Source: a virus
Taxonomy: Duplodnaviria; Caudoviricetes
Virus record (IMG/VR): IMGVR_UViG_3300020316_000005
Span: 32,001 to 96,000 of that record
Reading direction: 5' to 3' (one strand)
Length of the DNA stretch: 64,000 bases
The translations under genes and the position numbers were made by a program. Shown here piece after piece: positions 24,904 through 64,000 of the stretch. Within the stretch, counting starts at the first letter, position 1. Every line of letters begins with the position of its first letter. The notes below the pieces were generated by a model that saw only the letters and a program-made list of their open reading frames with translations, had not been told where the DNA came from and did not search any database.

Positions 24904-24926
24904 TTCTGATTACAGGGTGGTGTGTA

Positions 24927-26142: not shown

Positions 26143-27008
26143 TAGTTAGCGCCTCCGATTTCACCGAAGGGATTGGATTGCGTAAAGTCAAGAATGGAAT
26201 CTGCCTCAGTCTCAAATAATTGATTCTGATCGTATTCCGAATTTGTATTATTTAGAGTATTGTAACTGCTAGTGGTCCAGGCAGCACCAGAAGTCTGACC
26301 TGTGAGAGTCTCGGGAATAGTAAAGATGCCTGTTCTGTTATAGACTTGCAGTTGTCTATTTGCACTATCGAACGACTTGACTTCTGCCTGAACGTTGGAT
26401 GTGCCACCAACAATAGTTTCACCAACAGTAAATGTACCAGTACCACCTTCTGCAAAGTTGATGGTAATGGTTTGATCCAGATTGCGTTCGATAACATCGA
26501 TTGCTTCGACGCCAGTGTCGAGATCCTCGCCGCTGTACTCGTACAGCTCACACTTGAGACCCCAGACGTGAATCTTGTTTAACTGATAGAAAGGTTGTTC
26601 GTGCTCAACATATTGAATCTGGAACAACTTACCTGCCAGCGGGAAGTATATAAGGTCACCTTCATTAGGTCTTCCTTCTACAACCAGGGTTGTATTGTCA
26701 TCAACGAGATCTTGGAATCTCTTACGTGCAATGATGAAGTTTACCTGGTCCGAAATACGAACACCAAACTTGGAAAAGAGATCTCCATCTCCACCAAATC
26801 CCTGAACGTTTTCTAGATACGCTTCAATTTGATATGCTGAGTCAAAAGAAGACAGAGCATCTTCGCCAAATACTTGATCCTCACCCACCAAAGTTCTGGG
26901 GATATAATAAACGTCTGTCCCGAACATCTTAATTTGTTCGACGACAAGATCCTCCACGAGCTGCTGCTCGCCAGTTGTACCTTGAGTGAAATAGGAATTA
27001 GTAGGCAT
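26142..27008 (-). CDS. g14: Neck protein gp14
   Basis: EQIKMFGTDVYYIPR, RPNEGDLIYFP, PFYQL, DFTQSNPFG. Confidence 0.96.
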   Translation of the reverse strand: MPTNSYFTQGTTGEQQLVEDLVVEQIKMFGTDVYYIPRTLVGEDQVFGEDALSSFDSAYQIEAYLENVQGFGGDGDLFSKFGVRISDQVNFIIARKRFQDLVDDNTTLVVEGRPNEGDLIYFPLAGKLFQIQYVEHEQPFYQLNKIHVWGLKCELYEYSGEDLDTGVEAIDVIERNLDQTITINFAEGGTGTFTVGETIVGGTSNVQAEVKSFDSANRQLQVYNRTGIFTIPETLTGQTSGAAWTTSSYNTLNNTNSEYDQNQLFETEADSILDFTQSNPFGEIGGAN

Positions 27009-27009
27009 C

Positions 27010-27804
27010 TTATCCGATCATATCTAGGGGTGGCATTTCGTATGTAGCGCGAAGTTTCTCTTCCAGTGCTTGCAGTTCTTCAACAGCATCACTGTAGATC
27101 TTTTCGCCATTGAGGGTAACACCACCAGGAAGTTGTACGTTTTGGAACTTCGTCAGGTTGGTACCCCAATACTTTTTGATCAGTGCAGTTGCATAATCTT
27201 TGACCCACATAGTCCCGTAGATTTTGGACCAATTAGCAGGATCAAGTGCACGCACACAATCGATAATGATATATTCATCTTCACGGATGTCGGATAAAAC
27301 ATCCATATCAATGTACAGACGATTGTTGACTTGGTTATATCTTGTAGGTTTCATACCTTCCAGAAGGAAGTTGATAGTCTCCAAGTGTGTCTGAATCATA
27401 AAGTAATGATAGAACTGTGTTGATGTGAAATCAAACAAATCATTCAGTCTCAACTGGTAACGAATGTCGAACATATTCTGAGTACCTTTATCTTGGAAAG
27501 AAAAGATACCGTTGACAGAAGTTACGTGGTCGGGAACTGTAATATAATTGTTCTGTGTAAAGAACTCATTACTACCAACAGTCTCAGTGGTATTTGTCCT
27601 AAACGCATCAATCTCTGCCTGAGAGAATTGGTGCTTCAGGAAAACTTTCTCACTACCACTGTAGTGGAACTCTTGGAACATCTCGATAGTGTAATCGAGA
27701 GCATCATCAACTTGATCATCAGATACATTAACTTCCAAGACTGGTTTACCCAATCTACGGAGCGCATACTCCTTGAGTTCTGCTTTGCTTGTTGGATTAG
27801 CCAT
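27010..27804 (-). CDS. g13: Neck protein gp13
   Basis: LRRLGKPVLEVNV, KDYATALIK..WGTNLTKF, LPGGVTLNG. Confidence 0.96.
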   Translation of the reverse strand: MANPTSKAELKEYALRRLGKPVLEVNVSDDQVDDALDYTIEMFQEFHYSGSEKVFLKHQFSQAEIDAFRTNTTETVGSNEFFTQNNYITVPDHVTSVNGIFSFQDKGTQNMFDIRYQLRLNDLFDFTSTQFYHYFMIQTHLETINFLLEGMKPTRYNQVNNRLYIDMDVLSDIREDEYIIIDCVRALDPANWSKIYGTMWVKDYATALIKKYWGTNLTKFQNVQLPGGVTLNGEKIYSDAVEELQALEEKLRATYEMPPLDMIG

Positions 27805-27810
27805 TAGTTA

Positions 27811-48409: not shown

Positions 48410-48417
48410 TATTTAGT
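48410..48417 (-). promoter_or_regulatory. Late promoter (ACTAAATA), 5 bp from the ATG
   Basis: TAAATA core overlapping the stop of the giant gene. Confidence 0.5.
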
Positions 48418-51400
48418 TGTCGTCAAAGATCTGGTCTGAGGTGAATCCTGGGATCACGGTTGCACCGATATTGATCGTTAGGACTGCAGAGTTGGAGAGC
48501 GTTGGAGTTGCGCCCGCTGCAGTGAGACCACATCTGAACTCGTCACCACCATCACCTTGAGTTGTAGCACTCGTAGTGTAAGTTGGGCTAGTTGCGCCTG
48601 GGATGTTAGTCCAGGAAGTTGTTCCATAGTCCTTCTTCTGCCACTGGTAAGCGATTGTACCGCCTGCAGGGTTAGTGGAAGCGACCACGGTGAACGATGC
48701 GGTTTGTCCTTGGTTGACAGTTGTGTTAACTGGTTGAGATTCGATGACGATTGCCTGTTCGCCCTGTGCCTCAGTTTCGCCAGGAGGAACGTAATTCGGA
48801 TCGTAGATGTCAATACCACCGTTGAGAGGAGCACCAGTAGGTGCGAAGAAGTTGTCTGCAACAGTCGTGTTGACTGCAACGGTAGGTTGAACATAACCCT
48901 GACCTGCGTTCTTCACGTCAATGCGTGCGAGACCAACAAGTGCCTTAATGCGTGCACCAAAACCAGAGGAGGAAATCACATCAACCTGTGGGCGTGAACT
49001 GTAACCATCACCAGAGTTGGTAAGAATTGCCTTGGTAACGCGACCCTTTTCAATCTCTGCCAACGCTTGACCGTTACGACCGCGAACAGCGCCTGAGTAT
49101 TCAAACGTGATCAGGGAGTTGGAAGATTCAATCAGAGCAACCTCTCTATTCTCGTCCTCACCTTCGATCTGCAGAATGTCACCCGATTCGATCGGAGGAA
49201 CGACGGTTGCCGCGATAACGTCAACGTCAGAACCGATGTAGGAGAAGGCAACGAAGGTCGAACCTGCGCGAGGAATCTCGGAGAAGATGATTCTAGAACC
49301 AACGATCTCGAAACCAATTCCAGGTTCCTGAATAACACCGTTCAACTGACAGATGATGTTATTCTCAGGTCTAATCGTGTTGGACTGAACACCTTCAGTC
49401 AGAGTCAGTGAGTAGAACACACCACCCAGTTTCAGGTTGAAGGAGTTCCTCAACGAGTCGAAGTCGAAGGAGATGTCATCCAACTGTCTCAGTTTACCCA
49501 CGTAGACGCCGTGGAACGTGGAGTTGATAGCAGGTGCTTCAGTGAACTGAATGTTGTCAGAGAATGCCGTGTAAGCGTTGTTACCGCCAGGAGGTTGGAG
49601 GATACCATTCACGAAGATCATCATATGACCTGCGGGATCTGGGAAGTAAGGAGTTCCGTTCTCAGTGGTCAACTTGAAGTTCTGTTGAGAACCATCAAAA
49701 CCACGGAAGAATCTCTTCACGCGCCCGCGTAAGTATTTCGCCCCACCACAAGCACCTTGGAATCCAAAGTCACCAATAATCTGAGAGTTCTTCTGGAATG
49801 TTCCCCTAGTATCTTCCAGGTGGATAATCAGACGAAGACCAACTTGTTCAATCTTCGCGACCTTACCATATGCAGAAGTCGGTGTGATTGTAACGTTAGA
49901 GATCGCGCTGGTGTAAACACTTGGGAAGTTAGAACCAGGAGGAATCTTGGCAAGTTGATATGCAGTATTGTTTGCAATAGCAGTCAGGTCATTACTCAAA
50001 TCGTTAATGATACCAATGTATCTGTTCGTCTCGTTAGCGAGGTAAACGTGATTGTTATCAGTATCGTGCTCGGTAACCACGAAGGTGTGACCCACAGACT
50101 GACCTGCGTTTTGGAGTTGCAGCACGTCACCGACCTCGAATGTGTCTGTAACACCAGTATCAGTGGTCAAACTTGCATACGTGAAGCGTGTGATCTCTGT
50201 AGAGTGCAGATACTCACCAAATCCAGGAAGAATATTAAATCCTTCAATATCAATGATCTGATCGGTAACAGAACCGTAGATAACATCTCTCTCCTTGAAT
50301 TCGCCTTTGACAGTTTCGATGTCAAATGTAACGCGACCAAGTTGGTTAGCGGTAAGAGCACCGTCATTATTACGGACGATTAGTGCATTTGCCTTACCAG
50401 AATCTTCTTTGGAGTAAATGATGTCAGTTGCAATGAACTCACCCTTGTCGAAGTTGACCAGGATTCTATCGTCGGGAATACTTGTGATCGATGCTTGTGC
50501 ACCGCTAGTAGTTCCCTCAATAACATCACCTTGCTGGAATTGACCACCATTGACGATGAGTTTGACGTAACCCGTACCAGTTGCTCCAGTAGAAGCGAGC
50601 AACGTTGAGGTATTTCCAGTAGCACCCTGAACAACCACAGTTTCACCAAGAGTGAAGAAGGTTTCAGTTGTGACATTAACTTCTGCGTGCTTAACCTTGT
50701 ACATAACCTCTGCGAGGTTGTCCTGAATACGGATAACCTCACCGTATGCACCCGAAGAAGTGCCATAGAAGATGTCAGCAGGTTGAATACCACCAGTGAT
50801 AGGAGTAGGAATGACACGATCACCATATGTAGTGGCAATTCTGTCAATACCGCTCTCACGCAAGCAGACGAGAGTGTGAATTTGACCTGCAGTTCCAGGT
50901 GTCAGACTTGTAATCTTGTGACCATCGATATATTCTGCCAACCAAATGGTATTTGCAGTCGTATCGGGGTGAATATAATATTGCGTGAATGTAAGTTCAG
51001 CAATATTGCTACCGAGAACTTGATAATTGACTCTATCGTATGCCTCAAACGGATGACCCGCAGCAGTGATAGAACCGTTGGTATTGACTGCAACACCAGC
51101 GTCGAAGGACTGCTTAAGGATAACTGTCGGAGGAGTAGAACGCAGCAGAGCAGTCTGAATAAAATGATCAAGTTGATCGATCTTATGCTCAGCGTAAACA
51201 GTTGGGCGAAGTTCGCGATCCGTGTACGTGGGTTCCTGATTGTAAACACCAGGAGTAGTTGCTCTCTGACCAATGATTTCCTTACAGAAATCTTTAATTG
51301 CAGTTGCGTGATAGATCAAATAAGTTCTGAAGACGCCAGGGAATGCAATAAAGTTACCCTCAGCATCGAACCAAGAGTTAACGAGTTGCAGGGTTGCAGC

Positions 51401-54400
51401 ATTACCATCGGTGAGCAAGTCGTAAATGAATGCTTTACGGATAGCACTACCGTATGCTTCATCACCACCATAACCACTATACTGCTGAGCAGTCTTGTAG
51501 TATGCCTCACGGTTGATGTAATTATCGTTGATAATGAGCAGACGTGCTGCCTGACGATACATCTCACCTGCTCTACCCAGAGTATCCTCAAGAAGATCGA
51601 AGAGAACATTGGAAGCAGATCTAACGTTGTAGCAAAGACCACCACCATTATTCAGAGTGTTACCAGTTGCCTTGGTGGTTCTAACGAGACCACTATTTGT
51701 CAACCAGTTGCCGCTACCTGCTGCAGCAGTTTCAACGACGTTGATCACGTAAGAGAACAGGGTGTCAATAGAAGCAGAAACCAGAGCACAGTCACCGTTA
51801 CCTGCCATATCATAGGTAATATCGATGTCACGTCTGAGTGCACGCTCACCAGTAAGTGGCCACTCATCAGGAAGTGTTCTCGTCACACCATTCAGATAAG
51901 CCTGAGGGTTAGCAGTTTGCGTGAACAGGTTGATAGGAATACCCATCAGTGTTGTAACTGCTGCTGCCTCATTCTGGCAAGTAGGGTTAGCACTGTCAGT
52001 TGTGATTGTGCTGTCAATCGCTTGAGTTCCTTCTGTTGTACCGTTGGTTGTAACAGACTGATTTCTGAGAACCTCAATAGCAATATCGCGTGCCTGTTCC
52101 ATAATGTACTTGGTCTCAGTTGCCTGAGAAAGCACGTGAACAACTGCGTTAGCGTTGCTGATGTAGAACTCAGTTGCGTAGTACATCTTGTTGTTGCCAC
52201 CGTGCTTCAAGTTGAAGATCAGAGCATTCAGGATGTCAATAACGTCGTCAACACAGTTCTGATAACCACCAGGGATGACGAGAGAAGGATAGTTTGTGAT
52301 GCCACGTCCAACTGCAGTTGTAGCAATGAATCTAAGGTTATTTTCAATGCTATTTGCAGAATCGTAGAAACCATTTGCAGTTGCATTGTTATCATAATCA
52401 CCGCGAGGGACGCCACCGCCACCGCCGCCACCAAGAGCACCACCGCCTCCAGTGGACTCCTCGAAGGGATTAAACCCAAGCTTGTTGCGGATCGCGAGAA
52501 TTGACATATCACGTGCCAACTTATAGGCGTGAACAGTCTCTGCAGATTGATTGGTAACGTGCTGCAGACCCATCTGAGTATCCAGATAGAGTGCAGATGC
52601 GTCGTAAGACTTCTCGTTTACTGTGAATCTGAGGTCGTGGCAGACTGCATTGATGTAATCAACCAGGTCATCTTCACAGTTGACCTTACCACCAGGAACT
52701 TTGAATCCATTATGCTTAAACGCAGAGGTCTTCATAACCAGATCAACCGCTTCCTCAGCGATGATACGTGCATTTGCCTCTAGGATGTTTGCAGAATCAA
52801 GTGCACGATCGGTACCAGAGAAGATGTGGGGATCGGGAGGATAGAAAGTGCTCTCAGTAATTTCAGCACCATCAACACTGTAGTTGACAGCAGGATCGTA
52901 AACCTTTCTGTATGCGGGGAGGTCAGTGTACTGATACTGATAGAAATCGTTAATTGTTTGAGCGTTAGTTCCAGTCAGGTTAGCAATGTTCTCATTACGA
53001 CCAACCAACAGGTTTTCCAGTGCTTTACCACACAGGAACTTCACATCTTCAAATGCATCCAGCATAGGAAGAAGTTCACCTTCAATGTAGTTGATGTCTT
53101 CTTGACTATCCAGGTAAGAATCGATAATACCTTGGATATTGGAGTTACCACCAGTAATCAAGTCACCAGCAACAGCAGGGATAATGTGATCTCTGAGATC
53201 TCGGATGCACTTCTCTCTGTTGGGGATAGTGAGTTTGCTTTGCTGATAGAACGCAATGTTGACAAGCCATTTCTCTTCCAGCATTGCCACTGCCTCATCA
53301 GCAATAGACTTACGGTTGAAGTAGAGAAGGTCAGCACCATCACGGAATCTGTGACCAGTTGGAGCAATAACATCCAACATATTGTCAATCAGATCAGTAA
53401 TAAAGGTTGTGATTTGAGAAGACGCTGGTGAAGAGAAGTAGTTGGGAACACGAATTCTGTCGGTATATTCACCAGTCAGATCATCTTGGTTTGCAGTGAT
53501 AACATCAATACAGATCTTACCAACTTCACGCCAGGTATAGATGGACTGGAGAAGTTCACCATTCACGTGCTTCAGAGCACCAGATCCTTCCAGGTATCCA
53601 CGACCTGCAACGATAGTGTTGAAGTTGCCACCATAACGAAGATCGTTAATGATTGCGGGGATGATAAAGGAGTGAGTATCACGGAGACACTTGTCGGTAC
53701 CTGTAGTAGCGAGACCAACGTCTCCAGGAATAACAAAGTCAGGATACTTTGCCTTCATACGACCAACTGCTTCTTCTGCAATCCAGAAGCGGTTCTTATC
53801 AATGATCTCAGCACATTCACGATAATCATCGCGAGAAACATCAACTTCCTCAGTCATAATCTCACTACGCCACAGTTCAACACCGTCAGCAGTTGCAGAA
53901 GAGATTATGGTCTGACCATAAGTCGCGTAGATTGCAGTAGTTTCCATCGGGAACGGTTGACTACCGTTAAGACCGAATGTGACATCAAGACCTTCGTATA
54001 TTGTAGTGTATACGGTGGGGGGAGTAAAAGTAGAAGAATATGCAGCGGATTTTCTGATGACCATTTGGTCCAGATGTCCGTCATAGGTTTCACCATTGTT
54101 CCAAGCAGCACCAACCTTGAACGCTGTATCGCCATAGTCGTTATTGTCGGTATAATCAGAACCGACTTGCGTACCGTTCACGAACATCTTAGTAACGTTC
54201 GATGCACGGGAAACAGCGATGTGATACCAGGTATCGATGGTTGTGATAGCACCAGTAGCAGTGATATGGTCACCAGCACCAGTACCATAACGGAGAGAGG
54301 TTCCACTCATAAAGATTGTTGGTGCAACGCTTGAAGATGTGGGACGAGCGTCGATAATTCTTTGAACACCAGTTACGCTGTCAGGGCGAATCCAAGCTTC

Positions 54401-57400
54401 AATAGTGAAGTCGGCAGTACCAAAATTGACTCTTTGGTCAGCAATCATATCAATTTTGCTACCAGATCCACTGAAATCAAGAGATCCAGGTCCAACACCA
54501 AATGTAATGTTGTCTACGGAGACGTTTGCATAGGTAATCTTGGAGTTGGTGATATACTCATTTCCAGAGAACGAACCAGTAACACCCTTGGTGTAGATCC
54601 ACTTGTTACCAGCATTTGTACCGATAATTTCGGCGGTAGCACCAGAGGTGATACCCTTCATCGTGTCACCGAAGTTGAAGAATCCACCAGAAGACTTATT
54701 ACTATAGTTGTGCTTGATAGAACGAATAGTTTCGTTATCTTCAAACGCATAAGGGGGTTCAACACGAGTAACATTACTGATAGACCACTGATAGGTTGCA
54801 GGATCTGCACCTGTAGGATCTTGCAAAGAATCTGTAATGATCTTAATAAAGTTGGTAACAGCAGATGTCTGACTCACGCAAGCAGTGCTGCTACCGATAG
54901 ATGTTCTACCATCAGCATAGTTTGCTTGAGGTGCAGTCTTGGTATATGCTGCTTCAAATGCTGCCAAAGTTCCAGGAGATGCTGTAGTACCCAGAGCATT
55001 GATGGGAATATCCATCAGAGTTGTAATTGCAGCAGCAACTGCTTGACAAGTCGGGTTAGCAGGATCGGCAGTAATAGAAGTGTCAGTCACTTGGTTCCAA
55101 CCGTGGGAACCTTGCTTAACAACAGCTTCGTTTCTCATAATGCTGATTGCCATCGCCTTTGCCTTGGTGAAGGCATTTACGGTGTCATCTTCATAGCCAG
55201 CAACGTGTGCACCTGCCATATAGTAACGAGTTGCATCGTAAACGAAATCATTACCACCGTGTGCCAAGTTATATGCCATCGACTCAACCATATCCACGAT
55301 GTCGGACAGGCAGTTAACATCTCCACCAGGAACTGTCAGAGATGGATTCTGCACCTTAGCGTAGTGCAGTGATTCGTGTGCGATATACCACTTGTTAGCA
55401 AGGATCAGTGTACGAGCGTCAGCGTGACTGTTGCTAACAACTTCATATTCAGGAGTTAGAGTCAGATCCTTCCACTGAGTCAGATTTGTATACTCAGTAT
55501 CAATATTCTCCATTCTGATGCACTTCAGAGCAAGATCTCTTGCTGCGTTCATTGCATAGATGGTTTGAGGAACTGCACCGTCAAGATGGTAGATTGCCTG
55601 GTTCTGGACATATGTGTTAGCAATATCCCAGATCTCAGAGTTGCCATCAAACTCAAGTTGCCAAGCAGCTGCGTTGATAACATCAACGATGTCATCCATA
55701 CAATCCTGATTACCACCAACACTATTGATACTAAAGGAGGGGTAGAAATTCAACATATCACCCACGGCTTCTTCAGCAATGAAGCGTGCATTCTTCACCA
55801 ATGCGTCAGATGCGTTCTTAGCACGAGTATCAGTAACTTGCTTGAGAGAAGAGTTGCCGAAGTAAATCTTCTTCAATCTGATATTGGTTCCAGGTGCAAA
55901 ATCGGTACCAGTCAGCTGATCGTAACGAATTTCTTGGTTGCGAACAGACTCAAAGTCAAGGAAATCTTGGTTATTAGGAGTCTCAAGATCATTGAGTTCT
56001 GTTGGGTTAATAACAGTTTCACCAATGTCGTCAAGAATGACGTTCGGGAATGTTGTTGAGGGAACTCTCTGGAAGACAAGAGCAAAGAACGAAGATGCAG
56101 GAGACAAATCAACCTGGTCAATAACCTGATTGCTAGTATCATCGGTATATGGAGCGATGACAGTAACAGTTGCGGCAATTTTAGATCTGGAAGAGTAGAT
56201 AACATCGTTGAACTTGATGTTAAATTCACCAGTCTCAAACTTATCAGTACCAGAAGTACGAGAAACGACCAAATCAGTACCAATAACACCACCAGACAAG
56301 TTATTTTCTTCAATAATTGCAAAGTCGCCCTTGAGGTTGGTGATTCTCTCACCTTGTTCAAAGATCGTCTTAGAAGTAACGGGGTTTACAGTTGCAAGAG
56401 TGGAGTTGAATCCAGTTGCACTACTCAGAATTTGTTCGTTGGTTTGGAATGTACCTTCAATATCAAAAACATCGATGTAGTCAACACCAGAATCAATAAC
56501 AGTTGCGGTTGCCTCAGAAACAATACCTCTAACAGTATTACCAGTCAGCGGGAAGATACCACCAATATTGCTGAACGTTAAACGGGTCAGAGAAATTTGA
56601 GAATATGTAAGTTCACGGAATTTAATTCTAGAAGGTGCCTTTGGAGGTTCAGAGAACACAATAGAAGGACCAGCAGTAGAGAATGATTCTTGAGGTGCCT
56701 GTGCAACACCGTTAATCAACACAAACATCTGAGTTTCAGTTGCTGTGATAGATTCACCCTCAACATTCAGCGGGAACTGAGTTTTAATACCATTGAAGTC
56801 ACCAGAAACATCATCGATCTTCTTAACGATAGAGGTTAGAATTTCCTCAGAGTTAGTAAGTCTCTTCTGTCTGAAAAGTACCTCAGTGTTATTGAACTGG
56901 GTATAGATCGGTTGTGCGTTAGCAAATGATGTAATTTCATTGATATTAGTGAAGGAGTTGATATTAACTTCCTTGATCAAGTCGGAAATAACTTTACGAC
57001 CCGAAATATCCTTACCACCCGTGATTGCTAGTTCACCGAAGAGGTTGAAACCAACAGGGTGATTTGTTTCCAGAACAGACTTTCTCCAGTCGTTAATAGG
57101 TGTCTGAGACTTAATAACGTAAGAGAAGTTCTGATAGAAATAAGAATCTTGGATCTTCTGAACGATTTCGGAGGGTTTACCCACGTCATCGATAAACTGA
57201 CCAGGTGTATTAGTCAGAGATGCAATGTTCAGAGTACCGCGAGCAATAGACAGGTTATCAACCAAACCAGATGCACGAGACACCTGACCAGTTACACGCT
57301 CACCTTCTTTCCAGATACCATCATAGTTTTCAAGTTTCAGGATACGAGGACCGATCTGCCAACCTTCGTTAGTAGAAACATAACCAGTTGCAGATGCAAG

Positions 57401-60400
57401 TTCCAGCGAAGAACCCTGATAAACAAGTTCACCTTCAAGGAATCTGGAGGTTTCAACGATTGCAGTCGCTTGACCACCGAACACTTCGGTCAACAGAACC
57501 TGACGACCTTCACCTTGAGTCAAGAATGTGATGAAAGAACCAGATTCTGCATCAAGTTTGGTCAGTGCAATACGAAGTTGGTCGGATTCCAAAGAGTTTT
57601 GCTCACCAGCGATTGCATAGTAAGTCTGATTAGGGTTCAAGCTAACCAAACCTGCAGAACTCGGTTTCGGCAAAATACCAACCGTAGAACCAAGATCTTC
57701 TGCTCTCAACTGCACTTCTGCACCAGTTGTGATGCCGTGCGGGAAGTTGAACTGCAAATAACCCAAGTCAACGTTGACAACGTAGTTAAATTCAGACTTC
57801 AGGGTAACAGTCGGTTCGGAAGAATAACCAGAACCAGGGTTTTTGATGATAACTTCAGAAAGTCTGTTGTTCTTGACGATTGCTTCTGCTTCTGCACCAG
57901 ATCCACCGCCACCACTGATAACCACAGCAGGAACGGAGGTGTAACCAGAACCAGGATCGGTGATCTTGATTTCTGACAGAATAGCGGTATTAAACAGTTG
58001 AAGGTTGACAGGGAAAGTAATTTCGGGTCTCAGAGTATAGTCGTGAGAATAACCGAAACCAAATTCGTTGTTCTTCAGCTTCTTAATCTTACCGATGCTC
58101 TTACCTTGCAGGAACACCGATGCACCCGAACCTTCATCAGGAATCACAACTTCAAGTTGTGCACCAGAACCTGCAAGCAGGGGTCCAAGGATGCCAGGAA
58201 TAGCATCAACGTCGATAGATGCAGTTTTATATCCTTTACCAGCAGACGTGAGAGTGACATCGGTGATAACACCAGTGAAATCTCCATCATCCTGAACTGT
58301 AATGTTACAACTTGCACCTTCACCATCACCAGTAATAGGTACGTTGTAATAAATACCGTTCACATATTCAGTACCACCGTTGAGAATACGAACTTTTTCG
58401 ATCTCTCTGTTCGATGCGATGTCTGTAACGATGGGAAGTTTCTGGTAGAAACCACCTGGGTTGACAAGCTTGATGCTTGCAATAGGTCCAATCGCTTTTG
58501 GAGAGGTTGTAGAATAGAGGGAACGTGGGTTTCCAAACTCATTATTACCAACGGGAGCGATAGTCTTCTCAGGTTCAACGAGAAGTGGGAAATCGAAGGT
58601 AGTTCCTTGAGTTCCAGTTGCAGAAACTCTAAATCTACCAGAATAAGGACTCTGGATAACGTCAATAAAGGATCCTTCACCAACAGGAGAGTCTGCTCCA
58701 GTTCTAGATGGATCAAAATAGTATGAAATGTTGGTAACAGAGTCTGTAACGATGAATTTAACCAACGGAGTAGGCGAATCATCGTCAGTTAGACCAGGTG
58801 TACCCTCTCTAATGATGTTAATAAACGGATATTCCAGTTTGTACTGATTATCCTTAGAGAAAGACAGATAATAACCGAGGTTTGATGGATCATCCAGGTC
58901 AAAAATGTACTGGTGATAGCGAACAAACAGCAGTTTGGGGTGCTTGGCGTAGATATTGACGTTGGAAACAGAAGAACCTGTGCCTGAGAATGTGGGATCC
59001 TGAACAGCAGTTGCTCTCAAACGGAATGTAAACTCTCTAGAACTAAAGACTTCTTCAACAAAGAAGGATCCGTTGTAGTCATTAGTGGCAAATCTCTCTG
59101 TAAAGATGATTTCATTTGCCTCAAAGTTGTGTCTGCTGTTAGCAGAGCAGTATACAAGGTCCGTATTTGCAAGAGCAGAAGCAGGAATAACGTCTTTGTC
59201 AAGTGTAGCAATCAAAGAGAACTTCTTGACACCGATCAATCCAGCAAATGTAGCAATCTTGCCAGTTGCATCAACAGTAAATTGCAGGTTGACTGCATCT
59301 GCGTCAATGGTGTCGCCCTTAATAAAGGTGGAATCACCATAGATTTCTTCAATCTTAATAGTATAATCTTCTGCAGCAAATGCTCTCCACGAAGTAAACG
59401 CTCCCAGAGTGCTGCCATTGTAAGCAGTATTTGCCAGATCAACGTCGAAACTGCCAGAAACACTGGTGAAAGACCAGTTGACATTACCATCGGTCACAAT
59501 ACCAGTGGTGTGCTCTGGTTCCAAAGGACCAGAAACGCCTGTAGAAGTTGCAGTGTAAACCTTACCAGCATTGTAAACAACATCACCAACAGTATATGAG
59601 AAGTTCTCAACCCATTGAGGTGTTGTAGTTTCAACAGTGAAGTTACGATCAAGAGTATTGATGTCACCTGCCGTTGACTTCAGGAGTTTTGTGGTGTCAA
59701 AGTTACCAATAATCTTACCGATCTTTGCATAGTTTGTTCCAGCTTCAACGATTGTTCCATATGCAGAAACAACATCGCTTCCACCAATCACAGAATACTG
59801 CTGTAGGATAGAACCTTTAGTGAAAGATGCAGGTTGATTGAATGTAAGCGTCTTAACAAGGTCAATACTGTTATACTTTGCATCACGCAAGTAGAACTTG
59901 GGAATGACAGTTGCAGAAAGTAGAAGCTTCGTACCACCCTGTGTAGGAATAGTTGCAGTTCTCTCACTATACTTCTCTGAAGTATCTGTAAATGTGTAGA
60001 TACCAGGAACGTGAGTGGAGGTTACATCAGAATAATCAAGAATCTGAATACCTGCAGGACCAATAACCCAAGGATTGATAGTAACGGGTTGGGTATTAAA
60101 CGTATAACCACTCTCAGCGGCGGTTACAAGAGTGTGACCTGTCTCAACATCATCAAGGTTAAAGGTGCCAAGTTTCGTCTTGTCCTTATCAATCTTGTAG
60201 AGGAATGCTTGAGTTGCGCTGTTTGTACCAGCAACAACTGCAGCGGTAAATGAATCGTTATATTTGAATGCTGGGGTGACAACAAAGTTATCAACCCATC
60301 CCATCCAGGTATTGGTGGAATTCGGTGTGGATACAGGTCCAAGGGTTGCATCCTTAAGATTGACATCAACAGTTGTGCTCAAAGTTTCGAGAGCAAGTGT

Positions 60401-63400
60401 ACCGTTAATGAAAACACGATAACGATAGTTACCAACACCAGGACGCTCCTTAGTGAATGCAACGTGAACGAAGCTTTCACCATTGAACGCTGCACGATAA
60501 GTTGCTGCAGCAGAATATGTTGTGGATCCTCCAATATCAATAAACACCTTACCATTATTGGCATCTGATTGATCAGCAATAAGACCACACTTAACAGTGT
60601 TGCTCAGAGCATCAGAAACAGAGAAGAACTCAGGTTCAGTGTTATTTGCAGTGTAGGTAGCTGCAGGCATTGCGAAATAAGCTTCAGATGCCCACTCAGT
60701 TGCTACATCAGAACCATATTGAAGAACAAGTGAGTTGAAGTCTGTGATCTGAACAGAAGATGCACCATCTTGCTTTTTAGAAGTATCGATAGTTGCAAAG
60801 GCAGGATCATACCAAGCCTTGTTCGTACCAGTTTTCAGAGTGTCATTGTAAGTTTCATCAAGCAGATTATCGGCAGTGTTCCAGTTGAAGATTGCAAGTT
60901 GATCTGCTTCAACCTTATTACCGATAACAACTGTGTCGCCAGAGTTATCACTTGACAAGTCAACAGCGTGATAACCAATACCACTACTCTCACTTGCAGA
61001 GGAAGCACTGATAATGTTGCCACTATTCCAAGAAATCTTCAGAGTTGTGGACTGAACATCATTAAATGCCTTAGTGACAGAGACTCCAAGGTCAATGTTA
61101 CCAAACACGTCGAACTTAATACCAGCATTGTGGCATCCATCATAGGTTCCAGTAGGAACATAAATCTTGTGCTCAACAGGTGTAGTGTAGTCATTATTAT
61201 CAAACTTGACGTACAACACACCATAATTCTTGTCCTGAGCATTCACAGCAGTTGCTGCGACATATACAGCACCATATTCATCAATGGTGAAGGTGGGGTG
61301 CATAAACTTGTATGCGCCACTCTCAATTTTCTTTGCCCACTGCAGTTCAACAGTTGCAGTATCGTAGTAAGTTTCACCAAGAATAATATCACTTGCACCA
61401 GCAGGATCAGAAATACCGATGAACATAAAGGTGTCATTGGATTTCCATTGGAGATCCACCAGATGCTCACTACCACTTTCAGAAGCAATCTTACGCTTCT
61501 CCATAATGGTGCCGTCAATATCCAGCAGTGCTACCCACATATCGTCGGGAGCAAGGGAGTTTGCATCGGTATAACCACCAATCATCACCCTACCATCTTG
61601 ATCTAGGGCAATAGATGATGCATAGTCACGTCTGGTGCTACCAGAGATACCAGCAATATCACGTTGCCACTGGATAATACCATCAGGGTTGTTAGCATTA
61701 TCGAAACCAGATCTATACTTAGCAACAACAACGTCAGGATTGTGTGTAAGGTTAACACTGTTGGGGACAGTCTCACCAACAACATAGATGTTGTGGGGAT
61801 TGCTGTTTTCAACATACAGTGCTTTCCATTCCAAACTCTTGGTCCCTGATGCGGGAACAGTTGGGAACAATGTACGCTGCCAGAGAAGACGACCATCGCT
61901 GTTGAACTTAGCGAGGATACCAGCGGTATCACCGTCAGACTTTACAGTTTTACCACAAACATAGATTGTCCTGTCATCTGCAACTTTAACATCAGTGATA
62001 GTAGTTGTAGATGCATTTTCCTTCAAGAAGGACAGGAAGTAAGTTGCTTTCTTAAATCTCTGTGGGTGAGAGACACGAATTTGAGGGGGTTCGTCCTTAT
62101 CGTATCCAGAACCAGAGTTAATAATATTAACAGTGTTAACAGCACCCGCTTCTGTTCTTGGGATGTCAATTCTAAAGTCTTGACCAGTGGAAGAGATAAC
62201 CTCATATGTGGGAGGTAGTTCTTCGGAGTAACCAGAACCAGCTTGAGTAACAGTAACAGATTCAACACCAGAGATGACCTTAACCTTAAAGGTCTTGTTG
62301 GTATCGTCGATAATAGGTGTACTTTGGACGATAACTTCATCGCCAACACGCAATTCGTGCTCATCGGGAGTGGTGATACGTCCATAAGGAGTATCATTTG
62401 ACATATAACTGGAATAACCAGAAATTGTCAGACCCTTAACAGCATCAACTTTTGCAGATGCACCGAAACCTTCAGTGCCCTCATTATCAAAGTACAGTTT
62501 GTCACTGACTTTATAGGAGATACCAGGGTTCTCAATAACAAATCCGTCAACTTGAGCATCCTCAAACTTGGTAGTTGTTTCAATGTCAATGTCAACTTCA
62601 GAACGAGTAGAAACTCTAGGATAGTAATCAAAGAGTTGCAGGACAGGTTCTTCAGCAATATTGATTGTTGCGGTAGATTCATCACCATCAATGATACCGT
62701 TTCTGTTAGTATCTTCGATTTCAAAGATTAGATCAAGACCTTCTTCTGTAACAAGAGTATCGGTGTCTTGGTTGGGTTGACGGTCAATATCAATATCAAC
62801 ATCCTCATATGGATCACGGAAGCGAACCACATCTGCTGGGATATTAGTCTGAACAGCATTCTGAGAGTAGTTCCACTGATCGGGAGAAGAATACAGTTGA
62901 GGACCGCAAACATACGGGAAAACTGGATTACCGAAGTCAGATGCATCAATAGAAACAAAGTATGCATACACACCCTCGGGGAACTGTGGTGTTTTACAGA
63001 AACGACCGTTATATTGGTCTAGATCGCCCTCTTGGAAGACATACTCATAGTCATCAATGAATGAACCCGCAGGATAGTCAGTGAGAAGTGGACCATCTGC
63101 ACGCACAGGGTTTGGATTTGTTGCAGCATCATATACCAGTGCATCCTTAACCTTGTAAGAAGAACGGATTCTTCTAATGCCAGAAGACTGGTCGGTAGCA
63201 TCGATATAACCATATGGACCATAAATCGGGTTACCATCAAATGCCCATCCAAGAATTGGGGAGTGAACATAACCAGTAGACAGTTCTTGGAGTTGACCAG
63301 TTGACTGATTTCTGAACACGTTGTCTCCAAGAACGTATCTCAGTTGCTTAGGATCGGAAACGTGTGCATATTCACCGCCATATTGGGTGTTATATCCAGC

Positions 63401-64000
63401 AAACACGTAACCACGCGCTGCGTCAAAGTTCAGAGACAGTTCATCTTGAAGGTTACGAGTCCATTCAAAGACATTTGCAGAGAATTGTGCTTGCTCACCA
63501 ATAGATTCAAGGCGGATGGTAGTCATTCCAGTGGAATAACCAATACCTCTGTTTACAACAGTAACGCCAATAACCTTACCTCTATCCTCACCAATGGTAC
63601 CAATAGTTGCTCTAGCAACAGCACCATAACCATCACCATTGATAACAACTTCAGGTGCAGTGGTATATCCTCTACCAGCAGCAATGATAGCGATAGAAAC
63701 GATACGACCATTGATAATAATTGGTTGTGCAACAGCACCTTCACCCGAATTCAGTTTAATTTCAGGAGATAGTGTGTACGAGCTACCAGAGTTGGTAACA
63801 GATACGGATTGAATCGGACCACGAACTGATGCTGTTGCAGTACAACCTGTTCCACCCCCACCAGAAACAGAAACGGTGGGTTGTGATGTATATCCTTGAC
63901 CTGGCGATTCGACCAGAATTCTACTAACTACACCATTGGTAATAACAGCGGTAGCAGTAGCGCCGAATCCACCACCACCCACGATAGAAACAAGAGGGCT
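48413..64000 (-). CDS. g7: Giant baseplate wedge initiator gp7-like multidomain protein (>5,190 aa; 5' end outside window)
   Basis: Frame is open to the window edge. IQDSYFYQNFSYVIKS...HPVGFNLFGE wedge motif, GxGY modules, YHYH-like, propeller-like, LamG-like, helical repeats, C-terminal Ig; lies upstream of g8. Confidence 0.85.
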   Translation of the reverse strand, partial: SPLVSIVGGGGFGATATAVITNGVVSRILVESPGQGYTSQPTVSVSGGGGTGCTATASVRGPIQSVSVTNSGSSYTLSPEIKLNSGEGAVAQPIIINGRIVSIAIIAAGRGYTTAPEVVINGDGYGAVARATIGTIGEDRGKVIGVTVVNRGIGYSTGMTTIRLESIGEQAQFSANVFEWTRNLQDELSLNFDAARGYVFAGYNTQYGGEYAHVSDPKQLRYVLGDNVFRNQSTGQLQELSTGYVHSPILGWAFDGNPIYGPYGYIDATDQSSGIRRIRSSYKVKDALVYDAATNPNPVRADGPLLTDYPAGSFIDDYEYVFQEGDLDQYNGRFCKTPQFPEGVYAYFVSIDASDFGNPVFPYVCGPQLYSSPDQWNYSQNAVQTNIPADVVRFRDPYEDVDIDIDRQPNQDTDTLVTEEGLDLIFEIEDTNRNGIIDGDESTATINIAEEPVLQLFDYYPRVSTRSEVDIDIETTTKFEDAQVDGFVIENPGISYKVSDKLYFDNEGTEGFGASAKVDAVKGLTISGYSSYMSNDTPYGRITTPDEHELRVGDEVIVQSTPIIDDTNKTFKVKVISGVESVTVTQAGSGYSEELPPTYEVISSTGQDFRIDIPRTEAGAVNTVNIINSGSGYDKDEPPQIRVSHPQRFKKATYFLSFLKENASTTTITDVKVADDRTIYVCGKTVKSDGDTAGILAKFNSDGRLLWQRTLFPTVPASGTKSLEWKALYVENSNPHNIYVVGETVPNSVNLTHNPDVVVAKYRSGFDNANNPDGIIQWQRDIAGISGSTRRDYASSIALDQDGRVMIGGYTDANSLAPDDMWVALLDIDGTIMEKRKIASESGSEHLVDLQWKSNDTFMFIGISDPAGASDIILGETYYDTATVELQWAKKIESGAYKFMHPTFTIDEYGAVYVAATAVNAQDKNYGVLYVKFDNNDYTTPVEHKIYVPTGTYDGCHNAGIKFDVFGNIDLGVSVTKAFNDVQSTTLKISWNSGNIISASSASESSGIGYHAVDLSSDNSGDTVVIGNKVEADQLAIFNWNTADNLLDETYNDTLKTGTNKAWYDPAFATIDTSKKQDGASSVQITDFNSLVLQYGSDVATEWASEAYFAMPAATYTANNTEPEFFSVSDALSNTVKCGLIADQSDANNGKVFIDIGGSTTYSAAATYRAAFNGESFVHVAFTKERPGVGNYRYRVFINGTLALETLSTTVDVNLKDATLGPVSTPNSTNTWMGWVDNFVVTPAFKYNDSFTAAVVAGTNSATQAFLYKIDKDKTKLGTFNLDDVETGHTLVTAAESGYTFNTQPVTINPWVIGPAGIQILDYSDVTSTHVPGIYTFTDTSEKYSERTATIPTQGGTKLLLSATVIPKFYLRDAKYNSIDLVKTLTFNQPASFTKGSILQQYSVIGGSDVVSAYGTIVEAGTNYAKIGKIIGNFDTTKLLKSTAGDINTLDRNFTVETTTPQWVENFSYTVGDVVYNAGKVYTATSTGVSGPLEPEHTTGIVTDGNVNWSFTSVSGSFDVDLANTAYNGSTLGAFTSWRAFAAEDYTIKIEEIYGDSTFIKGDTIDADAVNLQFTVDATGKIATFAGLIGVKKFSLIATLDKDVIPASALANTDLVYCSANSRHNFEANEIIFTERFATNDYNGSFFVEEVFSSREFTFRLRATAVQDPTFSGTGSSVSNVNIYAKHPKLLFVRYHQYIFDLDDPSNLGYYLSFSKDNQYKLEYPFINIIREGTPGLTDDDSPTPLVKFIVTDSVTNISYYFDPSRTGADSPVGEGSFIDVIQSPYSGRFRVSATGTQGTTFDFPLLVEPEKTIAPVGNNEFGNPRSLYSTTSPKAIGPIASIKLVNPGGFYQKLPIVTDIASNREIEKVRILNGGTEYVNGIYYNVPITGDGEGASCNITVQDDGDFTGVITDVTLTSAGKGYKTASIDVDAIPGILGPLLAGSGAQLEVVIPDEGSGASVFLQGKSIGKIKKLKNNEFGFGYSHDYTLRPEITFPVNLQLFNTAILSEIKITDPGSGYTSVPAVVISGGGGSGAEAEAIVKNNRLSEVIIKNPGSGYSSEPTVTLKSEFNYVVNVDLGYLQFNFPHGITTGAEVQLRAEDLGSTVGILPKPSSAGLVSLNPNQTYYAIAGEQNSLESDQLRIALTKLDAESGSFITFLTQGEGRQVLLTEVFGGQATAIVETSRFLEGELVYQGSSLELASATGYVSTNEGWQIGPRILKLENYDGIWKEGERVTGQVSRASGLVDNLSIARGTLNIASLTNTPGQFIDDVGKPSEIVQKIQDSYFYQNFSYVIKSQTPINDWRKSVLETNHPVGFNLFGELAITGGKDISGRKVISDLIKEVNINSFTNINEITSFANAQPIYTQFNNTEVLFRQKRLTNSEEILTSIVKKIDDVSGDFNGIKTQFPLNVEGESITATETQMFVLINGVAQAPQESFSTAGPSIVFSEPPKAPSRIKFRELTYSQISLTRLTFSNIGGIFPLTGNTVRGIVSEATATVIDSGVDYIDVFDIEGTFQTNEQILSSATGFNSTLATVNPVTSKTIFEQGERITNLKGDFAIIEENNLSGGVIGTDLVVSRTSGTDKFETGEFNIKFNDVIYSSRSKIAATVTVIAPYTDDTSNQVIDQVDLSPASSFFALVFQRVPSTTFPNVILDDIGETVINPTELNDLETPNNQDFLDFESVRNQEIRYDQLTGTDFAPGTNIRLKKIYFGNSSLKQVTDTRAKNASDALVKNARFIAEEAVGDMLNFYPSFSINSVGGNQDCMDDIVDVINAAAWQLEFDGNSEIWDIANTYVQNQAIYHLDGAVPQTIYAMNAARDLALKCIRMENIDTEYTNLTQWKDLTLTPEYEVVSNSHADARTLILANKWYIAHESLHYAKVQNPSLTVPGGDVNCLSDIVDMVESMAYNLAHGGNDFVYDATRYYMAGAHVAGYEDDTVNAFTKAKAMAISIMRNEAVVKQGSHGWNQVTDTSITADPANPTCQAVAAAITTLMDIPINALGTTASPGTLAAFEAAYTKTAPQANYADGRTSIGSSTACVSQTSAVTNFIKIITDSLQDPTGADPATYQWSISNVTRVEPPYAFEDNETIRSIKHNYSNKSSGGFFNFGDTMKGITSGATAEIIGTNAGNKWIYTKGVTGSFSGNEYITNSKITYANVSVDNITFGVGPGSLDFSGSGSKIDMIADQRVNFGTADFTIEAWIRPDSVTGVQRIIDARPTSSSVAPTIFMSGTSLRYGTGAGDHITATGAITTIDTWYHIAVSRASNVTKMFVNGTQVGSDYTDNNDYGDTAFKVGAAWNNGETYDGHLDQMVIRKSAAYSSTFTPPTVYTTIYEGLDVTFGLNGSQPFPMETTAIYATYGQTIISSATADGVELWRSEIMTEEVDVSRDDYRECAEIIDKNRFWIAEEAVGRMKAKYPDFVIPGDVGLATTGTDKCLRDTHSFIIPAIINDLRYGGNFNTIVAGRGYLEGSGALKHVNGELLQSIYTWREVGKICIDVITANQDDLTGEYTDRIRVPNYFSSPASSQITTFITDLIDNMLDVIAPTGHRFRDGADLLYFNRKSIADEAVAMLEEKWLVNIAFYQQSKLTIPNREKCIRDLRDHIIPAVAGDLITGGNSNIQGIIDSYLDSQEDINYIEGELLPMLDAFEDVKFLCGKALENLLVGRNENIANLTGTNAQTINDFYQYQYTDLPAYRKVYDPAVNYSVDGAEITESTFYPPDPHIFSGTDRALDSANILEANARIIAEEAVDLVMKTSAFKHNGFKVPGGKVNCEDDLVDYINAVCHDLRFTVNEKSYDASALYLDTQMGLQHVTNQSAETVHAYKLARDMSILAIRNKLGFNPFEESTGGGGALGGGGGGGVPRGDYDNNATANGFYDSANSIENNLRFIATTAVGRGITNYPSLVIPGGYQNCVDDVIDILNALIFNLKHGGNNKMYYATEFYISNANAVVHVLSQATETKYIMEQARDIAIEVLRNQSVTTNGTTEGTQAIDSTITTDSANPTCQNEAAAVTTLMGIPINLFTQTANPQAYLNGVTRTLPDEWPLTGERALRRDIDITYDMAGNGDCALVSASIDTLFSYVINVVETAAAGSGNWLTNSGLVRTTKATGNTLNNGGGLCYNVRSASNVLFDLLEDTLGRAGEMYRQAARLLIINDNYINREAYYKTAQQYSGYGGDEAYGSAIRKAFIYDLLTDGNAATLQLVNSWFDAEGNFIAFPGVFRTYLIYHATAIKDFCKEIIGQRATTPGVYNQEPTYTDRELRPTVYAEHKIDQLDHFIQTALLRSTPPTVILKQSFDAGVAVNTNGSITAAGHPFEAYDRVNYQVLGSNIAELTFTQYYIHPDTTANTIWLAEYIDGHKITSLTPGTAGQIHTLVCLRESGIDRIATTYGDRVIPTPITGGIQPADIFYGTSSGAYGEVIRIQDNLAEVMYKVKHAEVNVTTETFFTLGETVVVQGATGNTSTLLASTGATGTGYVKLIVNGGQFQQGDVIEGTTSGAQASITSIPDDRILVNFDKGEFIATDIIYSKEDSGKANALIVRNNDGALTANQLGRVTFDIETVKGEFKERDVIYGSVTDQIIDIEGFNILPGFGEYLHSTEITRFTYASLTTDTGVTDTFEVGDVLQLQNAGQSVGHTFVVTEHDTDNNHVYLANETNRYIGIINDLSNDLTAIANNTAYQLAKIPPGSNFPSVYTSAISNVTITPTSAYGKVAKIEQVGLRLIIHLEDTRGTFQKNSQIIGDFGFQGACGGAKYLRGRVKRFFRGFDGSQQNFKLTTENGTPYFPDPAGHMMIFVNGILQPPGGNNAYTAFSDNIQFTEAPAINSTFHGVYVGKLRQLDDISFDFDSLRNSFNLKLGGVFYSLTLTEGVQSNTIRPENNIICQLNGVIQEPGIGFEIVGSRIIFSEIPRAGSTFVAFSYIGSDVDVIAATVVPPIESGDILQIEGEDENREVALIESSNSLITFEYSGAVRGRNGQALAEIEKGRVTKAILTNSGDGYSSRPQVDVISSSGFGARIKALVGLARIDVKNAGQGYVQPTVAVNTTVADNFFAPTGAPLNGGIDIYDPNYVPPGETEAQGEQAIVIESQPVNTTVNQGQTASFTVVASTNPAGGTIAYQWQKKDYGTTSWTNIPGATSPTYTTSATTQGDGGDEFRCGLTAAGATPTLSNSAVLTINIGATVIPGFTSDQIFDDN
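51200..55850 (-). repeat. Six intact plus one degenerate alpha-helical repeats (phycobiliprotein-like) in gp7
   Basis: Consensus (D)A...(L/I)..N..(F/W)IA.EA.......P....PG....C..D.......L..GGN; interrupted by a LamG-like domain. Confidence 0.85.

Follow-up and report, generated by a model that had tools for sequence, protein, structure and literature searches.

Phycobiliproteins (PBPs; Pfam PF00502, with CpcA/B, CpeA/B, ApcA/B and the bilin-binding domain of ApcE) are free subunits of about 160–170 amino acids located on thylakoids. In PBPs, the loop between helices B and E (B-E loop) helps enclose the bilin. The bilin-binding globin clade also has members that are not antenna proteins, namely the BBAGs (bilin biosynthesis-associated globins) and the photoglobins/photocobilins (PMC10151467). 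The CXRD motif serves for bilin attachment and hydrogen bonding, and CXRD-bearing BBAGs attach bilins by themselves (Rockwell et al., 2023; PMC10151467), so that BBAG-1/3 provide a precedent for lyase-independent loading of a CXRD site. By their description, BBAGs are small cytoplasmic bacterial proteins clustered with HO and FDBR genes, whereas the phage domains described here are repeats in a baseplate protein. The phage homologue of T-type lyases, PhiCpeT (Gasper et al., 2017, as referenced by PMC10452541), is a candidate partner of the phage domain and not a relative; T-type lyases act on β-153/155 and not on Cys-84 (PMC10452541). No description of PBP-fold domains in a cyanophage baseplate protein was found in the literature.

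The window, a stretch of 64,000 nucleotides, contains seven units that belong to the bilin-binding-globin (phycobiliprotein/BBAG) superfamily, all within a gp7-like giant protein of a T4-like cyanomyovirus. gp7 of T4 is about 1000 amino acids long, whereas the cyanophage proteins exceed it 5–7 times in size and contain modules of the PBP-fold, LamG and YHYH types. The minus-strand frame is open over 5195 amino acids and is 5′-open at the window edge, so the protein is longer than 5195 amino acids. Like T4 gp7, it is encoded within the baseplate wedge module ahead of gp9-/gp10-like genes; genes for a gp9-like connector and baseplate wedge subunits lie downstream of it. In PHROG it matches several “baseplate wedge subunit” families as well as phrog_701 and phrog_18802 (“virion structural protein”), and its homologues in S-RIM2 and P-RSM1 are annotated “similar to gp7” in GenBank notes. 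A direct gp7 match was not obtained in the Pfam search. The features are as follows.

48413..64000, minus strand: giant gp7-like baseplate/virion structural protein (ORF list and translation; PHROG matches)
55451..55843, minus strand: D1, PBP-fold unit with CMDD (Cys codon 55702-55700)
54791..55450, minus strand: D2, PBP-fold unit with CLSD (Cys codon 55312-55310)
54053..54436, minus strand: Laminin_G_3/concanavalin-like lectin domain between D2 and D3 (Pfam PF13385, E 6.3e-18)
53366..53848, minus strand: D3, PBP-fold unit with full K-C-L-R-D and PBP-length B-E loop (Cys codon 53689-53687)
52826..53365, minus strand: D4, PBP-fold unit with full K-C-I-R-D and PBP-like spacing (Cys codon 53209-53207)
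52406..52825, minus strand: D5, PBP-fold unit with CEDD, followed by a Gly-rich linker (Cys codon 52678-52676)
51671..52405, minus strand: D6, PBP-fold unit with CVDD (Cys codon 52255-52253)
51131..51670, minus strand: D7, degenerate copy without the motif Cys, Arg or Asp (unit alignment and HMM)

The seven tandem helical units (about 130–245 amino acids each, window 51131-55843) are 22–31% identical in pairwise alignment. A regex scan of the whole giant ORF found exactly six C-x-x-D motifs, one in each of D1 to D6, with the Cys codons where the earlier sequence-only reading of this DNA had placed them; its sequence of repeat 3 also matches the translation exactly. The Cys-less copy that it had noticed near 51500 is a real unit, D7, by unit alignment and HMM, and the D7 counterpart in a near-identical locus (L001) gives an HMM domain E of 3e-44. 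Its observation of a Cys in six repeats is thus confirmed, with the correction that in the window the full Cys-x-Arg-Asp triad with a PBP-length B-E loop is found only in D3 (CLRD) and D4 (CIRD). D1, D2, D5 and D6 keep the Cys and the Asp, and the propionate-binding Arg is replaced by Asp or Ser in these four of the six Cys copies. D2 has an additional Cys (PTCQAV) where its last helix starts, plus another Cys-headed segment. D6 likewise has an additional Cys (PTCQNE) where helix H makes its first turn, and its C-terminal 70 or so residues have no confident fold in the AF2 model.

The units D1 to D7 are almost certainly homologous to PBPs and share their fold. PF00502, which had been proposed as a check, scores 35.8 bits against the whole giant ORF (cut-off 22.2, E 9.7e-9), and 22.2 bits, exactly the cut-off, against D3 alone. 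It matches 12 of 45 copies at E ≤ 1 and is the only family that recurs across copies. The significance of profile searches against the PDB grows with depth, from E 4e-4 with seven sequences to 4.8e-7 with 45, and the top 60 matches of the 45-copy profile are all PBPs in a common register. Comparison with 67 cyanobacterial PBPs by hhalign gave a Prob of 96% and an E of 4.5e-9 over 135 columns. Because of these last two E values, the PBP resemblance is not a chance one. The sequence-only reading had aligned repeat 3 with allophycocyanin without gaps, and phmmer reproduces this, pairing residues 11–62 of D3, the unit nearest to PBPs, with PBP residues 39–90 in a gapless match. The homology covers helices B to E and goes on through the Gly-Gly turn, and K-C-x-R-D occupies the equal place in helix E of D3 and D4, with their CLRD and CIRD in register with PBP Cys-82/84. 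P-HM2 has KCARD, which matches the AKCARD that the alignments to PDB entries show for alpha chains of phycocyanin.

The AF2 models of D3 (pLDDT 89, pTM 0.87) and D6 (pLDDT 80–97 for residues 11–175) show a globin-type fold made up of helices A, B, E, F, F′, G and H, and PBPs are alike from helix A to helix H. In Foldseek, all top matches of the D3 model are PBPs (TM 0.6–0.72). In VIA, PBPs and the bilin domain of ApcE make up the eight best matches for both D3 (Z 15.5–12.4) and D6 (Z 15.6–12.1). The best match is 5aqd_M in each case (D3, Z 15.5, rmsd 3.0, 150 residues aligned; D6, Z 15.6, rmsd 4.6, 152 residues aligned). Lower scores, at Z of about 11, go to photocobilin globins, RsbR and globin sensors, with the photocobilin globin domain still a strong match at 11.7, and haemoglobins score 7–9. 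The N-terminal X-Y helical hairpin of PBPs is absent, as the match of the D3 and D6 models to PBP chains begins only at residue ~21–29, and D4 starts straight after helix H of D3 with no space for two further helices. Therefore, the units are not strict light-harvesting PBP subunits and would not form a canonical αβ monomer. Since the hairpin is missing and the units are fused in tandem into a baseplate protein of the extracellular particle, assembly into (αβ)3 discs or phycobilisome rods is unlikely. Segments resembling the G and H helices of β-phycocyanin, with a second bilin Cys, had also been claimed downstream, and this holds in part. In D2 and D6, the last helix has the PTC Cys in its first turn, and this Cys aligns with the β-153/155 Cys in a forced-global hhalign comparison of low column confidence, and some phage copies have a Cys at the helix-H N-cap like Cys-153/155 of β subunits. 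The GDCALV segment of D6, on the other hand, has pLDDT below 50 and no confident fold.

Across 1213 copies from related giant proteins, which carry 3 to 26 copies each, the motif Cys (96%), Arg at +2 (92%) and Asp at +3 (99%) are among the most conserved columns. This supports strong constraint on the residues that correspond to the bilin site across the family. As for the disulfides suggested in the earlier alternative, the motif Cys is the sole Cys in 65% of units and no other alignment column exceeds 7% Cys; the alignment thus supports that it is not a conserved disulfide partner. The surroundings of the site differ from PBPs. Asn-to-Cys spacing is 35 in D3, and D4 is also of PBP length, whereas the B-E loop of the modal family copy is about 9–10 residues shorter than in PBPs (Asn-to-Cys 26 versus 35–37). 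Therefore, the bilin pocket may be open or lost in the modal copy. The family also has polar residues of its own at or after helix E, Asp at Cys+10 (77%), Asp at Cys+15 (97%) and Gly-Gly-Asn, and these conserved Asp, Asp and Asn are lacking in PBPs.

Regarding hosts, all cultured phages with the domain infect Synechococcus or Prochlorococcus, in agreement with the phototroph association expected earlier. GenBank phage records matched by tblastn (358 and 77) are all from cyanophages, and the named structural matches in BFVD are likewise. Very copy-rich proteins (19–23 copies) come from a marine T4-like lineage; the relatives of this lineage that are in culture have Flavobacterium and Microcystis as hosts and are without the domain. 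As for the proposed link to bilin genes, it is seen with cpeT and is weak for ho1, pebS and pcyA, given that P-SSM2 has a bilin reductase and no PBP-fold domain. Among 19 phage genomes, 16 have the domain and all 16 have a cpeT-like ORF (14 at E ≤ 1e-3, two as weak two-piece matches), and in the three domain-negative genomes cpeT was not found even at E ≤ 10, local searches confirming the absence. For the co-occurrence, Fisher's test gives P = 0.010 if cpeT is called strictly and P = 0.001 under the relaxed call, values that ignore phylogeny and, like the adsorption correlation below, reflect few independent events, as one loss may account for both P-SSM2 and S-SSM7. In S-CAM4, S-RSM4 and S-PM2, a “short tail fiber” gene with PBP repeats has cpeT as its immediate upstream neighbour. 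Searches of the 110-kb genome fragment for cpeT, HO (PF01126) and FDBR (PF05996) found none, and this is uninformative since the fragment is only 62% complete. What fits PhiCpeT poorly as a partner is that the conserved phage Cys is equivalent to Cys-84, the site that T-type lyases do not serve.

Bilin binding in the virion by the copies with the full C-x-R-D is a plausible candidate function, judged to fall just short of probable. As virions are assembled in the cyanobacterial cytoplasm, at least D3 and D4 would take up a bilin (PEB or PCB) made by the host or the phage. A thioether would link the bilin to the conserved Cys. This bond would form autocatalytically, as it does in BBAG-1/3 and ApcE, or with assistance of a lyase, phage CpeT or a host S/U-type enzyme. 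The baseplate would then present a few biliprotein domains. D1, D2, D5 and D6 (C-x-D-D or C-x-S-D) and the Cys-less D7 may be structural spacers that do not bind bilin or bind it differently. Against bilin binding stands the loss of the Arg in four of the six Cys copies, and against binding by means of a T-type lyase, the presence of the helix-H N-cap Cys in only about 7% of copies. The shortened B-E loop of the modal copy and the copy-rich proteins of the marine T4-like lineage also count against bilin binding. We know of no reports of coloured or fluorescent cyanomyovirus preparations.

The conserved residues may serve other purposes. A captured PBP/BBAG gene may have been multiplied as a helical “bead” for baseplate or fibre appendages without any chromophore, C-x-R-D being kept for folding, inter-domain packing or assembly; we regard this as possible, if somewhat doubtful. 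The units without the hairpin stand amid modules of lectin-like, Ig-like and fibre type, the whole proteins being 3000–7000 amino acids long, their copy number varies as that of spacers would, the B-E loop is shortened in most copies, and D7 has lost all motif residues and was retained nonetheless, as were the copies without the Arg. No report of pigmented virions was found in full-text literature searches directed at this link, which also suits a chromophore-free role. However, fold stability alone hardly explains a lone unpaired Cys conserved with its Arg and Asp at such frequencies, and the conserved trio is exactly the set of bilin-contact residues of PBPs though the copies are otherwise only about 20–30% identical. 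Nor does this explanation predict the cpeT co-occurrence and partial synteny.

It is improbable that the Cys/Arg/Asp cleft binds something other than bilin, such as a metal ion or a host-surface ligand, or performs thiol chemistry as a redox-sensitive thiol or as an intermolecular disulfide or thioester cross-linking baseplate subunits. The polar residues absent from PBPs and the acidic cluster formed in C-x-D-D copies would suit such a cleft, but the family searches gave no match to any known family that binds metals or ligands, the nearest relatives in sequence and structure are all bilin binders, and an intermolecular cross-link needs no adjacent Arg-Asp. That the PBP resemblance is convergent, a generic globin-like helical bundle and not common descent, is very hard to believe. 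The best Foldseek E is marginal (1.6e-3), and helical bundles often reach a VIA Z of up to about 13, with globin sensors and RsbR at about 11. Nevertheless, three independent sequence tests (the Pfam threshold, the PDB profile and hhalign) give only PBPs in one register, significance climbs with profile depth, and PBPs outrank every other kind of globin for both D3 and D6, which were modelled separately.

If bilin binding is the function, light absorption by the chromophore might, speculatively, change the conformation of the baseplate or fibres and gate adsorption to the daytime. With relatives of the host light-harvesting pigment proteins that keep the attachment residues now located in the giant baseplate protein, virion pigment and light sensing become testable. 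P-HM1, P-HM2 and S-PM2 adsorb only in the light, independently of host photosynthesis, and P-SSM2 and P-SSP7 adsorb in the dark (PMC6628666). The former three carry the domain and the latter two lack it. By itself, this table of five phages gives P = 0.1, and P-HM1 and P-HM2, alike in the adsorption study (PMC6628666), may be close relatives. The tie to light-dependent adsorption put forward in the sequence-only reading is in line with this pattern, as presence or absence of the domain tracks the published light dependence in all five scorable phages.

The giant open frame that runs along one strand of the window carries seven tandem domains with the fold of phycobiliproteins (PBPs; Pfam PF00502), numbered D1 to D7. 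The frame and its features have the following window coordinates.

48413-64000, minus strand: single open frame of 5195 aa, running past the window edge
62942-63487, minus strand: YHYH domain (PF14240, E 3.5e-30), near the N-terminal part of the giant protein
51131-55843, minus strand: units D1 to D7
between D2 and D3: Laminin_G_3 domain (Pfam)
53366-53848, minus strand: unit D3
52826-53365, minus strand: unit D4
about 52406-52470, minus strand: glycine-rich linker GGGGALGGGGGGG between D5 and D6, the sole low-complexity spacer among the PBP-fold units

The frame matched phrog_701 and phrog_18802 (cyanophage 'virion structural protein') together with several 'baseplate wedge subunit' families, and genes for a gp9-like connector and baseplate wedge subunits lie downstream on the same strand. 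Its GenBank homologues are 5363-7351 aa long and are annotated with phrases such as 'similar to gp7'. The repeat region is nearest to the cultured Prochlorococcus phages P-TIM40 and P-RSM6 (44-47% identity), and 11 close IMG/VR loci are related to this single giant protein. The repeat region had no megablast match among 50,697 phage records, a word-based homologue search returned only 4 fragments, and ESM Atlas gave no usable match. A phmmer search of a 1551-aa region against PDB found nothing at E<=0.01; therefore, no solved cyanomyovirus baseplate structure covers this region.

The sequence-only reading described six repeats with a C-x-x-D motif and a seventh, degenerate copy lacking Cys. 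Indeed, a regular-expression scan of the 5195 aa gives exactly six such motifs, at the same Cys codons (near 55701, 55311, 53688, 53208, 52677 and 52254), and D7 can be aligned with the other units in spite of having no Cys. The motifs are CMDD, CLSD, CLRD, CIRD, CEDD and CVDD, so that within the window the Arg is kept solely in D3 and D4. All seven units are mutually alignable, with pairwise identities of 22-31%.

Homology to PBPs was supported at several levels of sequence comparison. PF00502 matched the repeat region with 35.8 bits against a cut-off of 22.2, as the sequence-only reading anticipated, and D3 by itself scored exactly the cut-off. Matches of D3 in PDB by phmmer were weak, and 26 of 30 were PBPs or PBP-derived fluorescent proteins. 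The gapless register proposed earlier is also real: residues 11-62 of D3 correspond to PBP residues 39-90 throughout the phmmer PBP matches. A profile of 7 rows reached E 4e-4 against PDB, and one of 45 rows, to which both IMG/VR loci and seven GenBank cyanophages contributed copies, reached 4.8e-7; such improvement with profile depth is as expected of true homology. The deeper profile gave 142 PDB matches at E<=1, the best 60 of which were all PBPs. When the 45 copies were scanned singly, PF00502 appeared in 12 and was the sole recurring family. From 149 PBPs gathered from cyanobacterial loci, 67 representatives were aligned to this profile by hhalign (Prob 96%, E 4.5e-9, 135 columns). These comparisons, together with the structural ones below, establish that the D1-D7 region is homologous to PBPs and has their fold.

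The AF2 model of D3, from a 20-row alignment, consists of six helices (pLDDT 89, pTM 0.87) and predicts the PBP-like globin fold that was suspected. In Foldseek, the top PDB entries for this model were solely PBPs (TM 0.6-0.72 over ~160 columns), with marginal E-values (best 1.6e-3). A VIA search, which is independent of Foldseek, placed PBPs and the bilin domain of ApcE at ranks 1-8 (Z 15.5-12.4), followed by photocobilin globins (11.7), RsbR and globin-coupled sensors (~11) and haemoglobins (7-9). With D6, a C-x-D-D copy, as the query model, the eight leading entries did not change (Z 15.6-12.1). PBP chains are covered by either model only from residue ~21-29 onward. Because the X-Y hairpin present in antenna PBPs is thus missing, the units are placed in the wider clade of bilin-binding globins and not among the antenna subunits.

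The bilin-site residues on helix E are strongly conserved in this family. When 1.84 billion representatives were searched exhaustively with a profile, 1294 proteins matched at E<=1e-3, 880 of them at E<=1e-10. The best 150 of the 1294 are giants of 730-6982 aa, in which 1213 full copies were counted, up to 26 per protein. In these copies the helix-E site has Cys in 96%, Arg (+2) in 92%, Asp (+3) in 99% and Lys (-1) in 52%. This Cys-x-Arg-Asp triad (CXRD) is among the most conserved columns of the family, the copies being ~20-30% identical elsewhere. PBPs use CXRD to hold the pigment, with a thioether to Cys and hydrogen bonds from Arg and Asp to the bilin, and bilin biosynthesis-associated globins (BBAGs) bearing CXRD attach bilins by themselves (Rockwell et al. 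2023, PMC10151467).

Disulfides were offered earlier as an alternative role for the motif Cys, and this candidate was rejected. The motif Cys is the sole Cys in 65% of the units, and every other column has Cys in at most 7%; thus, it has no conserved partner column and a conserved intradomain disulfide is excluded. The helix-G Cys of D1, D3 and D4 belongs to a column with Cys in 4.5% of copies and usually Ala. A second bilin Cys, as in beta-phycocyanin, was also proposed. The segment GDCALVSASIDTLFSYV, taken as helix H-like, gained no support, having pLDDT <50. The Cys of the PTC motif in D2 and D6 does lie in the first turn of helix H and aligns to the beta-153/155 Cys, but with low column confidence in a forced-global hhalign alignment. 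The PTC column has Cys in 7% of copies, and the idea of a second Cys in helix H is weakly supported.

The distribution of the domain is largely a matter of cyanophages. With D3-D4 as tblastn query, 358 of 50,697 phage records matched, all of them Synechococcus or Prochlorococcus phages, and the repeat segment of another giant protein matched 77 records, again all cyanophages. Named structural matches in BFVD were cyanophage tail or structural proteins and those of uncultured Caudovirales. The expected tie to phototroph hosts holds for every phage record matched by tblastn. The domain also occurs in a copy-rich marine lineage outside Kyanoviridae. Three marine metagenome contigs (L176 5567-18721, L181 7517-20671 and L182 6646-19197) encode proteins of 4183-4384 aa made almost wholly of 19-23 PBP-fold units with C-x-R-D, beside gp23, gp13 and gp15. 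Judged by their capsid protein, which shares 53-55% identity with its counterparts in Flavobacterium phage immuto and Microcystis phage Mel-JY01, these contigs are a second, non-Kyanoviridae lineage with the domain. No PBP-fold domain was found in the cultured relatives of this lineage (Mel-JY01, Flavobacterium immuto phages and RM378) or in a 484-kb uncultured phage.

The role of cpeT and bilin-synthesis genes in T4-like cyanophages has been termed unresolved or a mystery (PMC3037559, PMC2984593, PMC11480375). Among 19 phage genomes, the domain is present in 16, and all 16 have a CpeT-like ORF, 14 at E<=1e-3 and 2 as weak two-piece matches (P-SSM7, sum 28.6 bits; S-ShM2, sum 23 bits). In the other 3, even a threshold of E<=10 yields no CpeT candidate. 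A Fisher test of this association gives P 0.010 to 0.001, without correction for shared ancestry. Three cyanomyovirus genera have cpeT directly upstream of, and co-oriented with, a 'short tail fiber' gene of ~3800-4500 aa that is rich in PBP-fold units with K-C-x-R-D; the interval holds no more than tRNAs, an HNH gene or a few small ORFs.

Arrangement of cpeT and the downstream 'short tail fiber' gene
S-CAM4, 17514-30501 (L214): 290 bp apart, two tRNAs between
S-RSM4, 162121-177047 (L215): tRNAs and an HNH gene between
S-PM2, 163952-177267 (L205): 1.45 kb apart

In the S-PM2 RefSeq record (NC_006820, 165928-177267), sixteen tRNA features under one locus tag, S-PM2t009, are placed inside the 'short tail fiber' CDS, which looks like an artefact of annotation coordinates. 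Co-occurrence with bilin genes was found for cpeT but not for the bilin reductase (FDBR, PF05996): P-SSM2 has FDBR without the domain and S-PM2 the domain without FDBR, so that the suggested link to ho1, pebS or pcyA is weak. The window's own record, a 109,882-bp IMG/VR fragment estimated to be 62% complete, gave no cpeT, heme oxygenase-type (HO, PF01126) or FDBR gene.

Light-dependent adsorption is reported for some of these phages. Darkness prevents adsorption of P-HM1 and P-HM2 but not of P-SSM2 or P-SSP7 (PMC6628666). Adsorption of S-PM2 depends on light and is independent of photosynthesis, according to published work. By the 45-row profile, P-HM2 has 6 copies and S-PM2 has 13, whereas P-SSM2 and P-SSP7 have none; P-HM1 is also domain-positive. 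Presence of the domain fits light-dependent adsorption perfectly (n=5, P = 0.1). Unfiltered hmmsearch with two HMMs over the whole P-SSM2 and S-SSM7 genomes confirmed absence of the domain (best E 0.17 and 0.45), with the window as positive control giving 7 domains. These are the largest cyanomyovirus genomes tested (P-SSM2, L187-L200, 252 kb; S-SSM7, L216-L228, 233 kb); each contains giant open frames that reach 3000 aa or more, though neither PBP-fold domain nor cpeT candidate, and P-SSM2 keeps its bilin reductase.

The conserved triad, the lone Cys, the precedent of BBAGs and ApcE and the association with cpeT are the grounds for proposing that the units bind pigment, for which the chance seems just short of even. 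The principal alternative is that they serve as a structural module devoid of chromophore. The modal Asn-to-Cys spacing in the family, 26 residues against 35-37 in PBPs, counts against bilin binding, the PBP-like exceptions being D3 (35) and D4 (36). If pigment is bound, PBP-fold domains in baseplate and short-tail-fibre proteins might take on phycoerythrobilin or phycocyanobilin during assembly, phage CpeT acting as a dedicated lyase or chaperone for loading, and the loaded domains would form a virion-borne photoreceptor permitting adsorption only in light. Gating of adsorption is a further step and a doubtful one, and the full scheme, with cyanomyovirus virions as CpeT-loaded biliproteins, is likewise improbable. 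If true, it would be the first light sensor on a virus particle and would account for cpeT and for why S-PM2, P-HM1 and P-HM2 depend on light to adsorb. The pigment-binding fold, an attachment triad conserved in more than 1000 copies and location in the adsorption apparatus make the domain a concrete candidate answer to why T4-like cyanophages carry cpeT and bilin-synthesis genes and why, in some cyanomyoviruses, adsorption is confined to the light irrespective of host photosynthesis. Both questions become directly testable with a named substrate.

If the units are pigment-free, they would still be an unusual exaptation of a photosynthetic-antenna fold as a phage structural module. The bilin-binding globin superfamily now reaches virus structural proteins, host antenna-type domains having been taken into the virion; in the full-text literature, no paper was found that joins PF00502 or phycobiliprotein-like domains to phage virion proteins. 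Apart from phages, the exact DNA pattern for MAACLRDME, the bilin site of PBP beta-subunits, also occurs in contigs of non-cyanobacterial MAGs (L061, Tatlockia; L082, Chitinophaga; L131, Sericytochromatia), which could reflect bin contamination or PBP-like genes beyond cyanobacteria.
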